Positions 22,513 to 48,552 are shown, counted from the first letter of the stretch. The stretch: DNA of 64,000 bases from Candidatus Lindowbacteria bacterium RIFCSPLOWO2_12_FULL_62_27 (GCA_001784175.1 MFPR01000030.1:62001-126000), one strand, 5' to 3'. Made by a program: numbers and translations. The notes: generated by a model not told the origin, from the letters alone.

Positions 22513-22586
22513 GGCGGGGTAGCTCAGTCGGTTAGAGCGGGCGTCTCATAAGCGCCAGGTCGCGGGTTCGATTCCCGCCTCCGCCA
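22513..22586 (+). tRNA. tRNA-Met (CAT), elongator type (Ile2 not excluded); CCA not encoded
   Basis: GGCGGGG/CTCCGCC acceptor stem, TAGCTCAG D arm, GGCGT-CTCATAA-GCGCC anticodon arm, GGTTCGATTCC T arm. Confidence 0.95.
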
Positions 22587-37096: not shown

Positions 37097-37169
<73 letters not shown>

Positions 37170-39983: not shown

Positions 39984-41170
39984 GATCGGCCTTTCGGTCG
40001 GCGATTCTCCTGGCCGTTCTGATCGCGCTGATCGCGACCTACCGGAAACTCAAGGTCGAAGAGCAACAGGCGCGCGCCGGGAAGGCGGACGCGCCCGCGG
40101 CGACGCTGGCAGATCGAATCCGGACGTTGCCCGAACCGCCGTCTACCTGGCGTCTTCTGGAAACCGCGCCGGACGAAATGAACCTCGACGACCTCCCGGA
40201 CGTTCGGGACGCGGTGATGGAGCTGCTGGAGTCGGCGCAGACGCGGGTGACATTCGAAAGTTATTTCCTGAAAAAATCCCTGGGCCGGCCCGCCCGGTGG
40301 TTGCTGGACGCGCCGGGCCGCGGCATCCACGTGCTCGGCGTCGTGCATCCGAACCCGATGAGCGACGCGCCGTTTCTCGACGAACTCCGGGCTGCGGGCG
40401 CTCAGATCATCGAACGCGATTTCGCGCCGCTCGGGGGCAATCCGGGAGATGGATACATCCACGCCAAATTCATCATCGCCGACGGCGCGCGCGGATATCT
40501 CGGCAGCGCCAACCTGGGCGCGGCCGCGATGACGGCCAACCGCGAGATGGGACTCTACTTCGAGGACGCCTCCATCGCCCAGACGCTGGAACTCATGGCC
40601 GGGTTCGACGCCGGCCAGATCAGCAAGGGCCTGTCGGCCGACATCCACACCGCCGTGCTGCTCCAGGGGGCGGCCGACGGATTTGCGGTGGAGGGCCTGC
40701 CGCGCTGCGAGGAGGGCATCGCGGCGCTATGCGACCTGGCCGAGCGCGAGATCGACATCATGATGTTCACGTTCAGCCACCAGTTCGGCCACTACGCGGC
40801 GATCGCCAGCCCCGTGCGCGCGGCGATCCGGCGCGGCGTGAAGGTCCGCCTGATCCACGAGTCTTCGACGATGCGCGAATTGCAGGGCGTCGCGCCGACG
40901 CTGAAGGACATGCGCCAATGGGGCGTGGAGATCCGCCTCGCCGACCTTTCGACGCTGGGCGGCCGGCCAAAAGGCCAGTATCACGCCAAGGCGATGCGGG
41001 TGGACGACGAGTACGTCATGATCGGCAGCAACAACTGGACCGACGCCGGCTCGCACGAAAACCGAGAAACCGCGCTGATCGTCCGGTCCAGACACATGAC
41101 GGGACAGTTCATCAAGCGCTTTAGCGCCGACTGGCGCGCCACGCACGTGATCAAGCCGTACGTGCATTAG
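39980..41170 (+). CDS. Phospholipase D superfamily protein with N-terminal anchor
   Basis: Two HKD motifs: HAKFIIADG..LGSAN and HAKAMRVDD..IGSNN. Confidence 0.9.
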   Translation: MRSAFRSAILLAVLIALIATYRKLKVEEQQARAGKADAPAATLADRIRTLPEPPSTWRLLETAPDEMNLDDLPDVRDAVMELLESAQTRVTFESYFLKKSLGRPARWLLDAPGRGIHVLGVVHPNPMSDAPFLDELRAAGAQIIERDFAPLGGNPGDGYIHAKFIIADGARGYLGSANLGAAAMTANREMGLYFEDASIAQTLELMAGFDAGQISKGLSADIHTAVLLQGAADGFAVEGLPRCEEGIAALCDLAEREIDIMMFTFSHQFGHYAAIASPVRAAIRRGVKVRLIHESSTMRELQGVAPTLKDMRQWGVEIRLADLSTLGGRPKGQYHAKAMRVDDEYVMIGSNNWTDAGSHENRETALIVRSRHMTGQFIKRFSADWRATHVIKPYVH

Positions 41171-42969
41171 GCGTATTCGATTGGGATGTCAATGTTACAT
41201 TGTTGCAGAATGACCCTCGGGTCGGCTTTCTCCGCGCTCACCCGTTTCATGTAGGTTTTCCCGTCGTCCAGCGTCACGGTGAATTCGATGACGCCGCCAT
41301 CCTGCGTCTGATGGGAGGCGGCGCGGATGGTTTGGATCTTCGATTTTTCTTTTGACAGCCATCCTTCGAAGGCTTCCGGCGAAACGCCCGTGTCGCGCCA
41401 GAACTCTATTTGGTCGAACGGCACTTCCTTGAACCGCGCGATCACGAACTCCCGGTCGAGAAACGCCAGGAAGCTGCCCGCTTTCGGGCCCGACTCGCGG
41501 TCCAGCAGCGTCCGGTAGATGGACTGGAAGGCCGGCGGCTGGTCGATCGGGGTCAGGCGCGCGGCGTCAAAGATTGCTTTCTGAAGCGCCGTGTCCGACC
41601 ACTCGGCCTTGGGCAGGGCGTCCGCCAGGACGCGCAAAAATCCCCGCTGGGCCGGCGTGAGCGACGCGGCGCGCGCCGGCAGAGTTGACAGCAGCCGCAT
41701 CTTCTCCTCCTCGGCCGCGTAGCGGTCCAGCCAATAGCGCGCGGCCTGGACGCGGCGGTCGAGATGCCGGCGCTCGGCCGGAGAGAGCGGCGCACCCTTG
41801 CGTTTTTCGACTTCGGCCACAAGATCCATGTGCGGCATCTGGACCAGCATGATGACGATGTGGAAATTTTCCGCGTAATAGTCATTCTCGGACTTGACCT
41901 CGGAGAGCCGGTAGACCAGTTTCTCGTCCTCGATCGCCTTCGGATCATGAAAGGCCCGGTGGTGGGCGCGGTCAAAGTCGTTGAAGAGTTTCACGATGAA
42001 TTCCTCATCCAGCGTCACGTTCAGCGGCCGGTTGGGTTGCGTTCTCAGGATCAAGAAGCGCAGGACCTCCGGCGGCAGGAAGTCCGCCATTTCGCGGGCC
42101 ATGGCGCCGATTCCCCGCGACGAGCTCATCTTGGCGCCGCCGACCAGGAAAAATTCGTAAGGGATGTTGACCGGCGGCGACAGGCCGAAAATTTCCCGGA
42201 GGCACGCAGACGAAACATCCCGCGCGCCGCCCCGGGTGTTGTGGTCCTTCCCCGCGCCCTCGATCGTCACCGGGAATGTCCGCCACTTGGCAACCCACTC
42301 GAGCTTCCACGGAAGTTTGCCACGGCCGTCGAACGGCGAGACTTTCCCGCGATGCCCGCATCCGCGCGCCCATTGGACGAGGTCGGGCCGGCAGACGTAC
42401 TCGACCTCCTTGCCGTCATAGGCCGTGACTTCCGTCGTGCCGAGCCGCCCGCACTTCTCACAGATCGCCTGAAACGGATACCACGTTTCGGACCGTTTCG
42501 ATCCGCTGACCTCGAGATAGACGCGGCGCACAACGTCCGCGCGCCGCAGGATCGCGTCGATCACTTCGTCGAATTTGCCCGAACGGTACAGGTCCCGCAT
42601 CCGATAGGGCTCGGCCTGAACGCCCAGTTCGGCGAACACGTCAAAGAATTCCCGGATGTAATGCTCCGCCATATCCGATGCGGCGGATCCGGGAGGCGGC
42701 GGCACGTTGCAGAGGGGCGCGCCCAGATATTTTTCAAAATGTTCCCGTTCCGCGTCGCCCGCCGGGATTTCGTCCAGCGGATCGTAATCGTCCACTCCGA
42801 ACAAAAACCGCGCCGGAACGCCGCGGCTCTTCAGGACGCGGAACACCGCATCGTGAATGATCACGCCCCGGAGCGCCCCGACGTGAACCCGGCCGGAGGG
42901 AGTTTTGGAGTCGTTGATGATCTGAGGTTCAGCGCCTCGGATTTTGGCGGCAATGTCGGAAAACCACAT
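41167..42969 (-). CDS. lysS: Class I lysine--tRNA ligase
   Basis: SKTPSGRVHVG (HIGH-like), CEKCG/CGH zinc motifs, GKLPWKLEW, GAGKDH, KMSSSRG, GPK. Confidence 0.95.
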   Translation of the reverse strand: MWFSDIAAKIRGAEPQIINDSKTPSGRVHVGALRGVIIHDAVFRVLKSRGVPARFLFGVDDYDPLDEIPAGDAEREHFEKYLGAPLCNVPPPPGSAASDMAEHYIREFFDVFAELGVQAEPYRMRDLYRSGKFDEVIDAILRRADVVRRVYLEVSGSKRSETWYPFQAICEKCGRLGTTEVTAYDGKEVEYVCRPDLVQWARGCGHRGKVSPFDGRGKLPWKLEWVAKWRTFPVTIEGAGKDHNTRGGARDVSSACLREIFGLSPPVNIPYEFFLVGGAKMSSSRGIGAMAREMADFLPPEVLRFLILRTQPNRPLNVTLDEEFIVKLFNDFDRAHHRAFHDPKAIEDEKLVYRLSEVKSENDYYAENFHIVIMLVQMPHMDLVAEVEKRKGAPLSPAERRHLDRRVQAARYWLDRYAAEEEKMRLLSTLPARAASLTPAQRGFLRVLADALPKAEWSDTALQKAIFDAARLTPIDQPPAFQSIYRTLLDRESGPKAGSFLAFLDREFVIARFKEVPFDQIEFWRDTGVSPEAFEGWLSKEKSKIQTIRAASHQTQDGGVIEFTVTLDDGKTYMKRVSAEKADPRVILQQCNIDIPIEYA

Positions 42970-43064
42970 ATGGACCGAACCTGTCTCCTTTCTACAGTTC
43001 TCCAGCGCCGCCATATTAATATTGTATATATATATAAGGAAAGCCCGATTTGGATCGTTTCTGG

Positions 43065-43093
43065 TTGCATCCCGGGCCTCCTGCTGGTACGCT
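43065..43093 (+). promoter_or_regulatory. Sigma70-type promoter for the candidate structured RNA
   Basis: TTGCAT-17-TACGCT with a TG extension; a GTACGC/GCGTAC inverted repeat overlaps the -10. Confidence 0.55.
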
Positions 43094-43099
43094 CCGCGT

Positions 43100-43326
43100 A
43101 CACTAGAAAGGAGGTGGTCCCAGCCTTGAGTAGAACAAACACGACCAGTGAGGTGCCTGAACGTTAGGCTTTCCACCTGACCTTTCACAACGGTAGCCGT
43201 CAGGTGGGTCGGCCGCGCAAGCGGCCGTCGCCTTGCGGAATTCAAACAGGTTACCGGACCCGGAAGCCCCCCGGCACAGGTCACCGGGGGCGGCCTCACT
43301 GGCCGAAAAAGCTTCTGGGTTTTTTT
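43100..43326 (+). ncRNA. Candidate structured RNA containing an extended anti-16S tract, a 13-aa sORF and a pseudoknotted domain
   Basis: Intergenic, bounded by a promoter and a T7 tract; five nested helices plus an 8-bp pseudoknot; G-U pairs and a GCAA tetraloop favour the + strand. Confidence 0.65.
43126..43167 (+). CDS. Candidate 13-aa small ORF, MSRTNTTSEVPER
   Basis: TTG start after AGAAAGGAGGTG; TAG at 43165-43167. Confidence 0.4.
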   Translation: MSRTNTTSEVPER

Positions 43327-43350
43327 ATGCCCGCAGGCAATTTCCAGCCC

Positions 43351-44610
43351 CTACCCCGGCAGGCGGCGGCGGATGATCTCTTTGATGCGATCCGGCACGC
43401 AGGGATTCAACACAAGCTTCTCCATCGCCTCCGCCTGGTCGATCTTGTCACGGATGAGCCACGCGACCACCGGCGGGTCCAGTTTCTGGCGCACGAGAAC
43501 CAGGAGGTCGGCCATTGAAATGAGTTTATACCGGACAGCCACGTTCTCGACCGCGGCCGCGTCCGCCAGCTCGTAACAGGCGACGTGGGGATCGAGCGCG
43601 GCGTCCTCCTCAGGCGCCACCGGTTCCGGCGCCGCGCTTTCGCGGGTGAGGTGATGGGCGTAATCGGTGACGAACTCGCCGAGCCGGGCGACGGCCACAT
43701 CGAGGAGTTCCGGTTTCGACATATCCGCGTATTCGGTTTCGATCTCGTTCAATTCGTCCTCCAGGTGCGGCTGGTCGGGGGGGATGCGGCCATGCAGGTC
43801 GAGGATCAGTTTTTTGCAAGCCGACCGTTTCATGTCCATCTCGCGCTTGACGATGCCCTCGATCAACATCTTGATTTTGTCGTCCGTCAAATCCTTTTCC
43901 GCCGCCGCGCCGATGAAAAAAACGTCCGTGAAAAACCGGAACGTCAGGAGCCGGATGAGAAAACGGATGATCTTGTCGAAGATCGGCGCGAACCGGTAAT
44001 CGATTTCGTCGATCGCGTCCTGGCAGAGCTTGATCCGCTTCAACTTCTCCTCCGGCGACATCGGCGAGAGCTCCAGGAGGCCCATGGCCTTGTTGAAATG
44101 CTTCTTGGCCAGCGCGAAGTTGTCCATCACGCCCTGTTCGCCGCGGAGGTACCGGAACACGCCGGCGTTGAGGTGGGCGTCGGCCGTGTTGGATTTGGCG
44201 GATTCGAAAAAAAACTGCTCGGCCACCGCATCCTTGCCCCACCGGTGATACAGCGCGCCCAGCATCTGCAGGTCCTCCGGCAAAAGAAACGTCGCGTTGA
44301 TTTCGTCGATGATGTAGAGGGGAATCTCGCTGATGAAATGGAGCGGCCGGCATTCGGGTTTGGTCCGGTACTTCTGCCAGATCGCCTTGTTCAGTTTCTC
44401 GTATTTCCGGATCAGAACATTCCCCAGCCCGTCCTTGACGGTCTCCACCAGCCGCGGCGTCTGGCCCTCCACGTTGATCTTCTTGTCGAGATAGGACCGG
44501 TCGGCAAGAATGAAGAGATTCACCGCGTCCTTCGCCGCCGGCGCCTCCTCGGGCGATTCCTGTCCCGTCGATTGTGGTGGCACACCTGGTTCCGCTGCTT
44601 CCTGAGCCAT
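43351..44610 (-). CDS. Hypothetical helical (TPR-like) protein
   Basis: Protein-like from MAQEAAEPG; LGALYHRWG..AEQFF and AHLNAGVFRY are TPR-like; the upstream part of the tracked ORF is antisense to the cyclase. Confidence 0.75.
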   Translation of the reverse strand: MAQEAAEPGVPPQSTGQESPEEAPAAKDAVNLFILADRSYLDKKINVEGQTPRLVETVKDGLGNVLIRKYEKLNKAIWQKYRTKPECRPLHFISEIPLYIIDEINATFLLPEDLQMLGALYHRWGKDAVAEQFFFESAKSNTADAHLNAGVFRYLRGEQGVMDNFALAKKHFNKAMGLLELSPMSPEEKLKRIKLCQDAIDEIDYRFAPIFDKIIRFLIRLLTFRFFTDVFFIGAAAEKDLTDDKIKMLIEGIVKREMDMKRSACKKLILDLHGRIPPDQPHLEDELNEIETEYADMSKPELLDVAVARLGEFVTDYAHHLTRESAAPEPVAPEEDAALDPHVACYELADAAAVENVAVRYKLISMADLLVLVRQKLDPPVVAWLIRDKIDQAEAMEKLVLNPCVPDRIKEIIRRRLPG

Positions 44611-44706
44611 GACAGAGGAGAGGATACCAAAAACCGGCGTCAAATGTGAATGTGCGCGGATATTTTTGACTTCCGCAGGACGCATCCGCATGGGATGATC
44701 GGTCCA

Positions 44707-47700
44707 ATGGCAGAGACACGCGTATTCAGTCCCTTCATTCCGCCTCATCTTCTGCGGGAGCTTTCGGCGGGTCGCACGGCCCTGGAAGGAGACCGCGTCC
44801 TGGAGGGGGCGTTTCTGTTTTCGGACATATCCGGATTTACGGCCCTGTCCGAAAAATTGTCGGCCGCAGGCGCGGAAGGTGCCGAACGGATCGCGCACGA
44901 GATCAACCGGTGTTTCGATCCGCTCCTGAACCTGATGGACCGGCATGGCGGCAGTGTTCTCCGATTCGGCGGCGACGCGCTCCTGGTCTATTTCCCGGAA
45001 TCCGACGGCCTGTCCTGCCGGCACGCCCGGGCGGCGGCAAGCGCTGTGGTTCGAACCGTCACGACCATGAAGCCGGTGGAGACGCCGGGCGGGGCTGTCA
45101 AGCTCGGCGTCAAGGTCGGGCTGCACCGCGGACGTATCTTGGGCTTCGTCGCCCGGCTGGACAACACGCGAACCGAATACGTGACGCTCGGCGCCGCGCT
45201 GAACCGGCTGGCCGAATGCGAATCGGCGGCCGAGCGTGGGCAGGTGGTCGCGTCGGCTGATTTTCGGCGTGAGATCGGCGCGGGGAATCCACAAGAGTTG
45301 GATCGGCTGAGCCGGCCCGCGCGCCGTTTGGGTTCGGCGCCGAATATCACGCCAGCGAAACTGACGGGGTTTCTCCCCGCCCCGATTGCGGCCCGGCAGA
45401 CGCTCCTCGGCGAGCAGGCGGCGTGGCTGGCCGAAATGCGGCGCGTGACGGCCATGTTCATCAATGTCGATGGACTCGGCCGGCTGGCCGACCGGGCGGT
45501 CGCGCAGATACGGAGTGGAGACATCAACGCCGGGCGTGCGATCGTCCGGCAGATGGAATCATACTTTGCGGCCGTTCACGCCATCGCCGCCCTGCACGGC
45601 GGGTTTTTCTTCTCCACGGATTTGTACGACCACGGGGACAAGGTCATTTGTGTCTTCGGCGCGCCCGTGAGTCACGAGCGCGATGAGGAACACGCTGTCG
45701 ACGCGGCGAGGGACATTGCGAAGCTGCCCGAAAAAATGGGAATGCCGATCCGACAGCGCATCGGATTGAACAGCGGCCAGGCGTTTTGCGGGCTCATCGG
45801 CAACCGGCAGAGACGCGTCTATACGGTCATGGGAGACACCATCAACACGGCCGCCAGATGCATGTCGGCGGCGAGATGGCGGCGCGACGGCGCTGAAATC
45901 CTCACGCACGAAAACACGCTGGCGCGAACCCGCGGGCGGTACACGGGAACGCGGCGCGCGTTTGCGGCCAAAGGCAAATCGAAACCGGTTCCCGTCATGT
46001 CCGTGCGGGGCGAGCGGCCGTCCGCCGACATGGGCGTCGATTCGGGGCTGATCGGGCGGGACGAAGAGCGCCGGCGGATCGAATCGATGTTCGCCTCCGG
46101 AAAAGGATTCATCCTCGATCTGGCCGGAGACGCCGGGGTCGGCAAGAGCACCCTGCTCCGGTTCGCCGCCAAACTCTGGCAGACCGAAGGCGGCCGCGTC
46201 ATCGCGGCGGATTGCCTGCCGGTCGGCGCGACCGCGCCTTTTTTCCCGTGGCGCCGGGCGCTGTGGAATTATTTTTCGTTCGGCGACGATCCCGATCCCG
46301 CCCGTGTCCGGCGGGCGCTCGGGGAACTCGGAGGCCTCGCGCCGGACGATGCGGCGCTGGTGGCCGAGATGATCGGCGTCGAGATCGGCCGCCGGCCGCC
46401 GCCGCTCGACCCCAAACAGGCGGTCGAACGCCGGCTCGCGATACTTCGCCGGATCGTCGAGCGCGACCCGCGGGCGCTCTGGGTCTTCGAGGACGTCCAC
46501 TGGCTCGACGCGAACTCGGTGGACCTCCTGCGCCGCCTCGCAAAGGATCGCGCGCCCTGCCGCGTGATGGTCACGCACAGGCCCGGCCAGGAGATTTTTG
46601 ACGCGGGAGCGCCGGCGACGTCCCTGGGATTAAAACCATTCGGATTGAAAGAGTCCGGCGAGCTGGCCACCCGGATGCTGGGCGCGCGCGCTCTTCGCGA
46701 GTCGACGCTGGAGTCGCTGCACGCCAAATCGGAAGGCAACCCTTTTTATCTGGTGGAGCTGTACCGCTGGATTCTGGAACGCGGTGCGGAGTCGAGCATC
46801 CCGGACTCGATCAGTGCCGTCCTGCAGAGCCGCGTCGACCGGCTGCCTGACATTGACCGCGAGACGCTTCGGGCCGCCGCCGTCATCGGCAGGGGTTTCT
46901 TTCGCGATCTTCTGGCGGACGTGCTGCCGGTACGGGTGACGCAGGAGAAATTGAGGGAAATTCTGGGCCGGCTGGAGACCTCGGATTTTGTGCGGCTTCT
47001 GGGCGGGAACCAGTATGAATTCCGCCACGTCCTGACGCAGGAATCCGTCTACGAATCGATGACCACGGACCTCCGGCGGCGCCTCCACGGGCAGATCGCA
47101 CGCAGGCTCGAACGGCGCAAACAGGCCAACCACGTTCTGCTGGCGCATCACTTCGATCGCGCGGGGGTCGGCCCCAGCGCCATCGAGCATTTGGAGTTGG
47201 CCGGGCGGCAGGCCCAGAAAGTGTACGGCAATGACGACGCGATTCGCTGTTATTCGCGGGCCATCGACTGGCTCCAAAAAGAATCTGCGGTCCGGCAGAG
47301 GCTTCGCAAGCTCGCGGAGATTTTTCTCCGCCGCGCGGATGCGCACAAGGCCATCGGGCGCTTCGCGCAGGCCCGGGCGGACTGCATGGCCGCGGAGCGG
47401 ATCCATCTGAAAACGGCCGACATGGTTTCCGCAGCGCTCGCCAGAGACGCCGCGGGCGTGTGTCTTCAGCGGGAAGGCCGGCACCGCGAGGCGCACGCCT
47501 GTTCGGAGCAGGCGCTCCGGAGACTGCGGCGCGCCGGCTCGCCGCCCGAGGCGCTCGCCCGATGCCTCAACAGCCTGACCATCGCCAACTGGTATTCCGG
47601 CCGGACGGCGCTCGCGATCGAATACGGCGAGGAATCCATCCGCATTCGCCGCCGGCTCAAAGACCCAAAGCAACTCTCGCTGGGACTCTTTGCCCTTGGA

Positions 47701-48552
47701 AAAGCCTATACGGTCGTCTGCGATTTGTCCCGGGCGGTTTCCTGTTTCGAGGAATTGCACGCCGTTTCAAAACGGACGCGGGACGTGCCGGGGATCGCCT
47801 ACGCGCTCGACGGGCTCGGCCAGTGCAACCGGAAGCTGGGACGGCTGGGTCTCGCTCTTCGACAGCACCGCGAATCGTTCCGGTTGCGGGAAAGCGCCGG
47901 CAACCGGCGTGCGCTCGCCTATTCGTGCCTGAACGAGTCCCTCACGTATCTGACGCTCGGCCTGCCGGTGCGCGCGCTTCCGCATCTTGAACGGGCCGAA
48001 CAGTTCTTGAAGGAGACAGACGAGGAAAATCTCGTGGGGGAATTGTGGCGATACCGCGGCATGGCCGCGCTCGAGTCGAACCAGCCGTATCGCGCCGCCA
48101 TCTGCCTCGAACGGGCACTGCGGATCGCCCAGTCGACGGGATTTCTGGAATCCGAAGTCAACACCCTCGCGCCGCTGGCCCGGGCGACATCGATTCTCGG
48201 CGATCAGGTGCGCGCCGCGGCGATTTGCGACCGGCTTAGCGACATGGCCCGGGCGGCAAGGATCGTGGACCATTGCGTGTGTGCCGATCTGATCGTCGGC
48301 GAAATCGCCGCGCGGCAGGGGGACACGCGCCTCGCGGAAGAGTCGCTGCGGGCGGCGGCCGAGGCCGCGGCCCGGCATGAATTCTGGCCGCTGTTTCTCG
48401 AGATTGCAGAGCGCTGGACGAAATGGTTTCCCGCGCTGCCGCAGCCGGACGGCCTGCCGCCGCTGGACGCGGTCCTCCGCCGGCTGAGCGACAGCCTTGA
48501 CGATTTCGACAGGAGAGCCTTCGAAGCCCGGATCAGAGTACTACTCGGTTAG
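44707..48552 (+). CDS. Soluble-adenylyl-cyclase-like protein: two class III cyclase domains, P-loop NTPase, TPR
   Basis: FSDISGFTALSE, RFGGDAL, VFGAP, YTVMGDTINTAAR, GDAGVGKST, FEDVHWLD, SEGNPFY, TPR repeats. Confidence 0.92.
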   Translation: MAETRVFSPFIPPHLLRELSAGRTALEGDRVLEGAFLFSDISGFTALSEKLSAAGAEGAERIAHEINRCFDPLLNLMDRHGGSVLRFGGDALLVYFPESDGLSCRHARAAASAVVRTVTTMKPVETPGGAVKLGVKVGLHRGRILGFVARLDNTRTEYVTLGAALNRLAECESAAERGQVVASADFRREIGAGNPQELDRLSRPARRLGSAPNITPAKLTGFLPAPIAARQTLLGEQAAWLAEMRRVTAMFINVDGLGRLADRAVAQIRSGDINAGRAIVRQMESYFAAVHAIAALHGGFFFSTDLYDHGDKVICVFGAPVSHERDEEHAVDAARDIAKLPEKMGMPIRQRIGLNSGQAFCGLIGNRQRRVYTVMGDTINTAARCMSAARWRRDGAEILTHENTLARTRGRYTGTRRAFAAKGKSKPVPVMSVRGERPSADMGVDSGLIGRDEERRRIESMFASGKGFILDLAGDAGVGKSTLLRFAAKLWQTEGGRVIAADCLPVGATAPFFPWRRALWNYFSFGDDPDPARVRRALGELGGLAPDDAALVAEMIGVEIGRRPPPLDPKQAVERRLAILRRIVERDPRALWVFEDVHWLDANSVDLLRRLAKDRAPCRVMVTHRPGQEIFDAGAPATSLGLKPFGLKESGELATRMLGARALRESTLESLHAKSEGNPFYLVELYRWILERGAESSIPDSISAVLQSRVDRLPDIDRETLRAAAVIGRGFFRDLLADVLPVRVTQEKLREILGRLETSDFVRLLGGNQYEFRHVLTQESVYESMTTDLRRRLHGQIARRLERRKQANHVLLAHHFDRAGVGPSAIEHLELAGRQAQKVYGNDDAIRCYSRAIDWLQKESAVRQRLRKLAEIFLRRADAHKAIGRFAQARADCMAAERIHLKTADMVSAALARDAAGVCLQREGRHREAHACSEQALRRLRRAGSPPEALARCLNSLTIANWYSGRTALAIEYGEESIRIRRRLKDPKQLSLGLFALGKAYTVVCDLSRAVSCFEELHAVSKRTRDVPGIAYALDGLGQCNRKLGRLGLALRQHRESFRLRESAGNRRALAYSCLNESLTYLTLGLPVRALPHLERAEQFLKETDEENLVGELWRYRGMAALESNQPYRAAICLERALRIAQSTGFLESEVNTLAPLARATSILGDQVRAAAICDRLSDMARAARIVDHCVCADLIVGEIAARQGDTRLAEESLRAAAEAAARHEFWPLFLEIAERWTKWFPALPQPDGLPPLDAVLRRLSDSLDDFDRRAFEARIRVLLG

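Follow-up and report, generated by a model that had tools for sequence, protein, structure and literature searches.

The closest described relative of the RNA reported here is Ms_IGR-5 (Rfam RF02471), a family labelled 'Actinobacteria sRNA' and defined in 2013 in a paper that, to judge by its title, reportedly identified the RNAs using heterologous Hfq. Later work records the IGR-5 transcript in M. smegmatis, where it is named ncMSMEG15794c (PMC10454040), detection of the RNA in S. lividans (PMC8079986) and S. avermitilis (PMC8780764), and significant ribosome-profiling reads on the MS_IGR-5 homologs of M. abscessus and M. smegmatis (PMC4974804). A search of main texts in the literature returned no study of Ms_IGR-5 function, of a micro-ORF, of anti-Shine-Dalgarno complementarity or of ORF-embedded helices, and the main text of PMC9094748 has zero occurrences of 'sRNA' or 'small RNA'. 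A second family, the Caulobacter sRNA CC2171 (RF01867), is validated by Northern blotting in Methylorubrum, where no inducing condition was identified (bioRxiv 10.1101/2022.01.24.477521).

The window analysed here is the whole stretch of 64,000 nucleotides from Candidatus Lindowbacteria bacterium RIFCSPLOWO2_12_FULL_62_27. At 43100-43326 on its plus strand lies a real stand-alone RNA gene that runs from a candidate promoter to a terminator (Table 1). In a family known since 2013, the micro-ORF, the complementarity to the 16S tail and the set of helices embedded in the ORF appear to be new.

A divergent relative of Ms_IGR-5

At Rfam's curated thresholds the element gives no match, and the sole matches in the window are two tRNA genes at 22513-22586 (+) and 37097-37169 (-). 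In a permissive scan, RF02471 aligns to the element over its full length and on the same strand (model positions 1-184 of 184 over 43100-43328, +) at 31.4 bits and an E value of 1.9e-5, below the 45-bit cut-off. Relatives from the organism's own family score 40.4 and 37.5 bits and three Actinomycetota loci 175.8, 98.5 and 95.2 bits. Bridging homologs above 45 bits come from other phyla, namely a Methylomirabilis MAG (L100, 67.7 bits), a Gemmatimonadota MAG (L121, 57.5 bits) and G153 (L039, flagged unpublished, 51.6 bits), and L121 shares with the window's element an ORF ending in ...TREVPER and the GACC/GGUC pairing. The element is a divergent, sub-threshold relative of Ms_IGR-5 and not a member by Rfam's cut-off. 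The initial annotation had recognised no known family and had named a strong hit to one as evidence against its reading; the former statement is overturned by this full-length, sub-threshold relationship, which also touches on the latter. In the same region, a weak CRISPR-DR28 match at 43209-32 (-) was rejected as merely a GC hairpin.

The element and RF02471 have in common the ACAC start, the Shine-Dalgarno block, the GUGAGGUG block, the position of the stop codon five codons past GAG, the long-range helix, the GAAUYC...CAG.YCACC block and, at the end, a branched hairpin whose loop contains GUC. They differ in ORF length (13 codons in the element, 12 in RF02471) and in the pseudoknot, which is GACC/GGUC in the element and GGAC/GUCC in RF02471; the element, unlike RF02471, has a bulged long-range helix, ends in a U-tract terminator and carries P5, an additional hairpin that complements the ORF. 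Its host belongs to a candidate phylum with four genomes in the set.

The organism's taxonomic family, which is the whole phylum in the set, has a homolog in two of the three other genomes (G001 and G003); the one left over is 91% complete. Scanning one genome per species with a pattern returned at least 120 loci, two of them judged false by eye; among the matches listed, nearly all are from Actinomycetota, with one each from Methylomirabilis, Gemmatimonadota and Polarisedimenticolia MAGs. A clade-specific pattern found 30 contigs in metagenomes, one of them the organism's own. In an even sample of Actinomycetota, under strict filters, RF02471 matched 45 of 151 genomes at E <= 0.001 and 23 of 151 above the cut-off, with four of the matching genomes flagged unpublished. 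Only one of 121 Gemmatimonadota genomes in a similar count matched, the query genome itself, and the occurrence in that phylum may reflect horizontal transfer or a mis-binned contig. Beyond Actinomycetota the RNA occurs sporadically in at least four phyla or candidate phyla, and the copy number was one per genome in each of five genomes searched. Weak RF02471 and RF01867 signals in Caulobacter, Thermus and other controls (E up to 1) were gone at E 0.001 and are taken to carry no information. All counts of relatives are inflated by relatedness, and some of the supporting genomes (G153, G156, G173, G203 and G275) are flagged unpublished.

RF01867 itself matches the element at 16.5 bits (E 0.3-0.56; cut-off 75), through the Shine-Dalgarno block and a GC hairpin only, and none of 151 genomes around the source organism scored above its cut-off. 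One further, simpler relative is worth recording: L133:110-284, from G038, scores 28.8 bits with the CC2171 model. It has the same Shine-Dalgarno sequence, a plain terminator, the long-range helix GGTGGCG/CGCCACC and an ORF of 14 codons that ends in ...VEVASP-stop, and is without both pseudoknot strands.

Three sequence sets are used below. The 121-sequence set consists of the window's element, G001, G003 and 118 loci among the matches listed. A2 is a MAFFT alignment of 71 representatives sharing at most 80% identity, drawn from among the matches listed, and A3 is a 21-sequence clade alignment that includes the window's element. The collection patterns fixed the Shine-Dalgarno sequence and GAC..GTGAGGT for the A2 set, and GTGCCTG in addition for the clade set, so that conservation of the Shine-Dalgarno and ORF bases is partly built in.

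Table 1. Features of the RNA gene, in coordinates of the window
Feature	Position	Strand	Description
RNA gene	43100..43326	+	inferred start ACAC to T7 end; RF02471 match and G001/G003 homologs
Candidate promoter	43065..43093	+	TTGCAT 43065-70, spacer 17 nt, TACGCT 43088-93
Extended Shine-Dalgarno, SD1	43105..43120	+	AGAAAGGAGGTGGTCC; complements last 16 nt of own 16S rRNA, one G-U
13-codon ORF, TTG...TAG	43126..43167	+	reads MSRTNTTSEVPER
Pseudoknot 5' strand GACC, ORF codons 6-7	43143..43146	+	partner GGTC 43279-82
Internal SD-like GAGGUG, codons E-V	43150..43155	+	6 nt 5' of last sense codon
Long-range helix LR, 5' strand GGTGCCTG, ORF codons 9-11	43152..43159	+	partner 43247-55
LR 3' strand CAGGTTACC, anti-SD-like	43247..43255	+	one bulged U
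P2 5' strand AGGC (helix weakly supported), takes in stop-codon AG	43166..43169	+	partner GCCT 43230-33
Variable insert	43170..43229	+	hairpins 43173-81/43199-207 and 43210-16/43221-27, from computed folds
Conserved unpaired GGAATTC	43237..43243	+	family consensus GAAUYC; relatives' alignments
Terminator domain	43258..43320	+	three-way; outer stem 43258-67/43311-20 around P4 and P5
P4	43268-74/43284-90	+	GGTC 43279-82 in loop
P5	43292-95/43301-04	+	inside outer stem
T7 tract	43320..43326	+	sequence; T-rich tails also in closer clade

The promoter proposed in the initial annotation is plausible. Its TTG and TA...T are kept in G001 and G003, and a TAnnnT hexamer lies 4-8 nt 5' of ACAC in 69 of 70 representative relatives, whereas a control window has one in 1 of 70. 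Against it, a scan tool called no promoter and no plus-strand terminator; neither TTGCAT/TACGCT nor a branched terminator is caught by the rules of that tool. The T7 tract was read correctly. In the insert that separates the ORF from the 3' module, neither length nor sequence is conserved among relatives, and the 3' module itself is present in 118 of the 121 sequences (among the matches listed).

The element is intergenic, in the interval 42970-43350 between two minus-strand genes. On one side a class-I lysyl-tRNA synthetase (LysRS) occupies 41167-42969 (-; Pfam PF01921, E 2.3e-87), this being the less common LysRS type in bacteria; a (TA)n-rich stretch at 43015-43037, between the LysRS start and the RNA promoter, is probably a shared divergent promoter region. 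On the other side an unassigned, convergent minus-strand ORF (43351-45294) ends at 43351. The next plus-strand gene starts at 44650, beyond this convergent gene, and the original remark that there is no downstream gene to regulate is borne out. That gene (44650-48552, +) encodes a protein of 1300 residues with adenylate/guanylate cyclase, AAA_16 ATPase and TPR/MalT-like repeat regions, and its start overlaps the 43351-45294 ORF, so the true start of the latter must lie further downstream.

With the LysRS gene start only 130 nt away, and a terminator placed behind a leader ORF as in an attenuator, one might suppose that the RNA is a cis-acting leader of the minus-strand LysRS gene, a possibility named at the outset as one that would count against a stand-alone RNA, or of a downstream plus-strand gene. 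We consider this very improbable and the reading largely refuted. The Rfam scan gave no T-box or other leader family down to E 10, and the conserved promoter, ORF and terminator all lie on the plus strand, where the next gene is the one past the convergent gene. LysRS was found by tblastn near none of six relatives, and Pfam assignments around five other relatives differ from locus to locus (MsrA with an RNase-Z-like gene, aminotransferase, subtilase, cyclophilin, Fpg/GNAT, FAD oxidase). In Micromonospora (e.g. L018:6474-7529) the RNA stands directly 5' of a metallo-beta-lactamase-fold gene resembling RNase Z, a linkage not seen in other genera.

Complementarity to 16S rRNA and the micro-ORF

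The organism's own 16S gene (L005) has the 3' end ...GGATCACCTCCTTTCT, with which SD1 forms 16 contiguous pairs, one of them G-U, that extend to the extreme 3' terminus of the rRNA; positions 43121-43125 are unpaired with it. The complementarity noticed initially therefore stands, at 16 nt; the earlier figure of about 20 nt was too long because it assumed a generic 3' end for the 16S. Across the genome (4.39 Mb), the only matches to the 16-mer with at most one mismatch are SD1 and the antisense of the 16S gene, and two mismatches admit three further sites; within the window, 0.03 chance matches are expected at up to two mismatches. The calculated SD1:16S duplex has -27.8 kcal/mol, versus -8.7 for GGAGG alone. 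The internal GAGGUG, which gives a duplex of -9.3 kcal/mol with the 16S end, is invariant in A2 and A3, two alignments whose search patterns had already fixed some of its bases.

The start codon lies 5 nt past the end of SD1 and 11 nt from the Shine-Dalgarno core, a core-to-start spacing that looks long. The pseudoknot strand GACC also complements GGUC within SD1. An alternative hairpin between the 3' end of the Shine-Dalgarno sequence plus spacer and codons 2-6 is modestly supported, at -9.05 kcal/mol versus -7.94 for cross-paired sequences. It is the better of the two in 51 of 71 sequences (Wilcoxon p = 1.8e-5, with kinship uncorrected) and amounts to only 4 bp in the window's element. Within the variable insert, CCACCTGACCTTTC (43173-43186, +) is anti-SD-like and pairs with the Shine-Dalgarno sequence in the unconstrained minimum-energy fold; it is not present in G001 or G003, and may thus be chance or a strain-specific self-mask.

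The 13-codon TTG...TAG ORF recognised in the initial annotation is confirmed, and proves to be a feature of the family. A start and a stop in the frame of GAG-GTG are found in all 121 sequences (118 of them among the matches listed), compared with 18 and 0 of 121 for the two alternative frames. In the same set, which is again mostly from among the matches listed, the start is ATG in 40, TTG in 66 and GTG in 15, placed 7-13 nt past AGGAGG, and the stop falls exactly five codons past GAG, as TAG in 107, TAA in 9 and TGA in 5. That all 14 codons other than TAG are still stops argues for a working stop. Within the closer clade, start and stop are kept in 21 of 21 sequences with ORFs of 10-18 codons. 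Genes of GC-rich bacteria ordinarily start with TTG far less often than the 66 in 121 seen here. AT-rich codons, which are rare in genomes as GC-rich as these, occupy positions 2-4.

Could the RNA be an mRNA for a functional 13-residue peptide, with a fold that merely stabilises or tunes it? Every relative has an intact ORF and the C-terminus ...T-x-E-V-x-x-x recurs, yet the conserved residues coincide with paired nucleotides and the length of the N-terminal part varies, giving ORFs of 10 to 18 codons. Variation falls on the N of NGG, ACN and NGT codons: among the matches listed, codon 5 (NGG) encodes R in 51, W in 8 and G in 5, and codon 7 (NGT) R in 54, C in 5, S in 4 and G in 1, while the third base of the Thr codon (ACN) is variable and covaries with a loop base. 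Residues that vary as N-GG and N-GU codons would point to constraint on nucleotides and not on amino acids. Judged from these substitutions, the peptide itself looks unconstrained, and we hold a functional peptide to be doubtful. The SEVxxR motif, named earlier as a peptide by which to collect homologs, is kept mainly through the pairing of its nucleotides. The codon table of this leader ORF has no repeated amino acids or runs of regulatory codons.

An ordinary base-pairing sRNA is a second alternative, in which the SD-like and anti-SD-like stretches would be seeds or self-masks and the ORF incidental. The filing of Ms_IGR-5 as an sRNA in Rfam, the heterologous Hfq in the title of the defining paper and the resemblance of the LR 3' strand to the anti-SD seeds of some sRNAs all speak for it. 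It is nevertheless improbable in our view, since none of the 121 sequences (among the matches listed) has lost the start or the stop, every stop variant being still a stop, and since the promoter-proximal Shine-Dalgarno sequence is unpaired in the family fold.

Fold and covariation

The plus strand folds better than its shuffles (z = -4.43), and the minus strand less clearly so (z -2.54). Applied to A2, RNAalifold found, unprompted, the LR helix between codons 9-11 and the downstream CAG.YCACC, together with the outer terminator stem. When the named structure, i.e. the LR helix, the outer stem, P4 and the pseudoknot that joins ORF codons 5-6 to the P4 loop, was counted in A2, 86.6% of cells were paired versus 77.3% in shuffles (0/500 as high), and sliding it by 1-3 columns left 29-50% paired. 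The corresponding figures for A3 are 87.6% and 81.4% (0/500 as high). Covariation among homologs, set beforehand as a test of the proposed RNA, supports this fold. Both alignments come from MAFFT, so the register of helices in variable regions is imprecise.

The LR helix is paired in 95.9% of A2 cells, with five of its nine pairs compensatory, and in 94.6% of A3 cells. The pseudoknot is paired in 95.2% of A3 cells, 20 of 21 rows pairing at each of four positions. Neither the LR helix nor the pseudoknot can covary in A3, because the search pattern fixed their 5' strands, and in the element's own lineage the pseudoknot has only 4 bp and is invariant. Its Actinomycetota counterpart, GGAC/GUCC, has a covarying flanking pair, which in A2 is GC in 24 sequences, UA in 14, AU in 7, UG in 4, GU in 2 and other in 20. 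A blind mutual-information scan returned, in its top 12 pairs, pairs of the terminator stem and this pseudoknot pair (54-260), and placed an LR-extension pair (69-218) fourteenth. The outer stem has compensatory changes at eight of ten pairs in A2 and five of ten in A3. P4, one of the helices originally drawn and retained here, has them at six of seven pairs in A3, with 67.9% of its A2 cells paired, and P5 at three of four in A3. P2 is weakly supported: it was seen by eye in the window's element, G001 and G003, and its assigned columns are 50% paired in A3.

Other helices of the initial annotation fared less well. The pairing 43167-72/43263-68 clashes with the covarying terminator stem, and an 8-bp pseudoknot at 43191-98/43249-56 clashes with the family-wide LR helix and is not kept in G001; neither is supported. 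The 9-bp pairing 43145-53/43294-302, between the ORF and the P5 loop, is plausible as a lineage-specific feature of three sequences: it is identical in G001 and is replaced in G003 by a different 8-bp match to an adjacent segment of the ORF. In the other 15 clade members scored, complementarity of the P5 loop to the ORF is absent.

The family fold is not the most stable one calculated. The unconstrained minimum-energy fold reaches -103.4 kcal/mol and hides the Shine-Dalgarno sequence, versus -98.9 kcal/mol for the family fold, such that forcing the LR helix costs +4.5 kcal/mol with the pseudoknot left out of the count. The Rfam consensus for RF02471 differs again, leaving the LR 3' strand unpaired and pairing the Shine-Dalgarno sequence with GCUGYC; we rejected this helix, which can form in 91.5% of cells and has no covariation beyond shuffles (98/500 as high). 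Taken together with the distribution, the comparison shows that both the 'Actinobacteria' label and the consensus structure of RF02471 are too narrow.

Three helices, namely LR, the pseudoknot and the more weakly supported stop-codon helix, draw on nucleotides of the ORF, from codon 6 to the stop, and the anti-SD-like strand of LR lies about 90 nt downstream of its ORF strand. The final two thirds of the ORF are thus paired with elements further downstream.

A proposed ribosome-gated RNA and its comparison with known systems

The reading that we favour, and to which we would give an even chance, is that this is a translated, ribosome-gated, stand-alone RNA that can be loaded with a ribosome or folded, but not both at once. 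A 30S subunit would dock on the unpaired, extended Shine-Dalgarno sequence at the transcript start, and the ribosome would then translate 13 codons, for which all three ORF-embedded helices must be melted. At termination on UAG, the P-site codon would have the internal GAGGUG 6 nt behind it, after which the RNA could refold. As the ribosome must melt the fold, two states of the RNA are expected, one ribosome-loaded and unfolded, the other ribosome-free and folded. Our best guess is that this would couple the supply of free ribosomes either to the availability of the GAAUYC and anti-SD strands or to the decay of the RNA itself. The output may be the RNA, through strand exposure or decay, or the ribosome, through sequestration or protection of the 16S end; either fits. 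The earlier suggestion of a ribosome-binding RNA or translation-gated switch agrees with the conserved start and stop and with the placing of the ORF in conserved helices, although part of the helix set on which it was drawn was wrong.

Another possibility is that the RNA acts on the ribosome and not on itself, as a ribosome trap, holding 30S subunits or 70S ribosomes through the 16-bp SD:anti-SD helix and a structured ORF and thereby buffering or storing ribosomes or covering the 16S 3' end. Pairing that reaches the 16S 3' terminus in a duplex of -27.8 kcal/mol, a weak TTG start in 66 of 121 relatives (among the matches listed), a structure that begins a few codons into the ORF and the ribosome-profiling reads reported on relatives (PMC4974804) are all consistent with such a trap. 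Titration of ribosomes from a single gene copy, however, would require that copy to be expressed very strongly, and the invariant placing of the stop, like the conserved motifs in the 3' part, suggests a role beyond docking. The pseudoknot lies at different distances from the start in different clades (about +13, +17 and +22 nt), which implies no fixed roadblock geometry. We rate the trap, in which translation to the stop would serve release only, as rather unlikely.

If ribosome gating is taken further, Ms_IGR-5-type RNAs might form a multi-phylum class with the ribosome as ligand, acting as a gauge or buffer of free ribosomes; we put this forward tentatively. Their sole 'coding' content would then perhaps be to have one ribosome load by way of its entire anti-SD tail and unfold them, a notion held with similar reserve. 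By analogy, they might conceivably play for the ribosome the part that the 6S and Ms1 RNAs play for RNA polymerase, and this too is offered with no great confidence. A role in tuning SD-led versus leaderless translation in lineages rich in leaderless transcripts is speculative.

Provided that the anatomy holds, ribosome loading is what this conserved RNA is built around, and it would be a new type among the few RNAs by which a core machine is sensed or sequestered. The RNA is present in about 15% (Rfam cut-off) to 30% (E <= 0.001) of the 151 Actinomycetota genomes sampled, and M. smegmatis and Streptomyces are tractable, harmless hosts that carry relatives, the one in S. lividans being SLIV_16488.

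Several known systems invite comparison. SgrS, RNAIII and SR1 are dual-function small RNAs in which a functional peptide is separable from the base-pairing part. The element resembles them in being a short transcript with a small, putatively translated ORF and a conserved RNA structure, and is unlike them in that its ORF and structure share nucleotides and its peptide appears unconstrained. In trpL-type attenuators and ribosome-sensing uORFs, translation of a tiny ORF competes with helices near a terminator. Here, too, a tiny ORF overlaps helices beside a terminator; the element differs from those attenuators in having no regulated downstream gene or regulatory codons and in the variety of its neighbours. 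CC2171 begins with GAAAGGAGGUGAUCC followed by GUG, and its Rfam consensus pairs a stretch past GUG with a segment adjacent to the terminator, a likeness that may reflect homology. The simpler G038 locus hints that CC2171-type and Ms_IGR-5-type RNAs belong to one superfamily.
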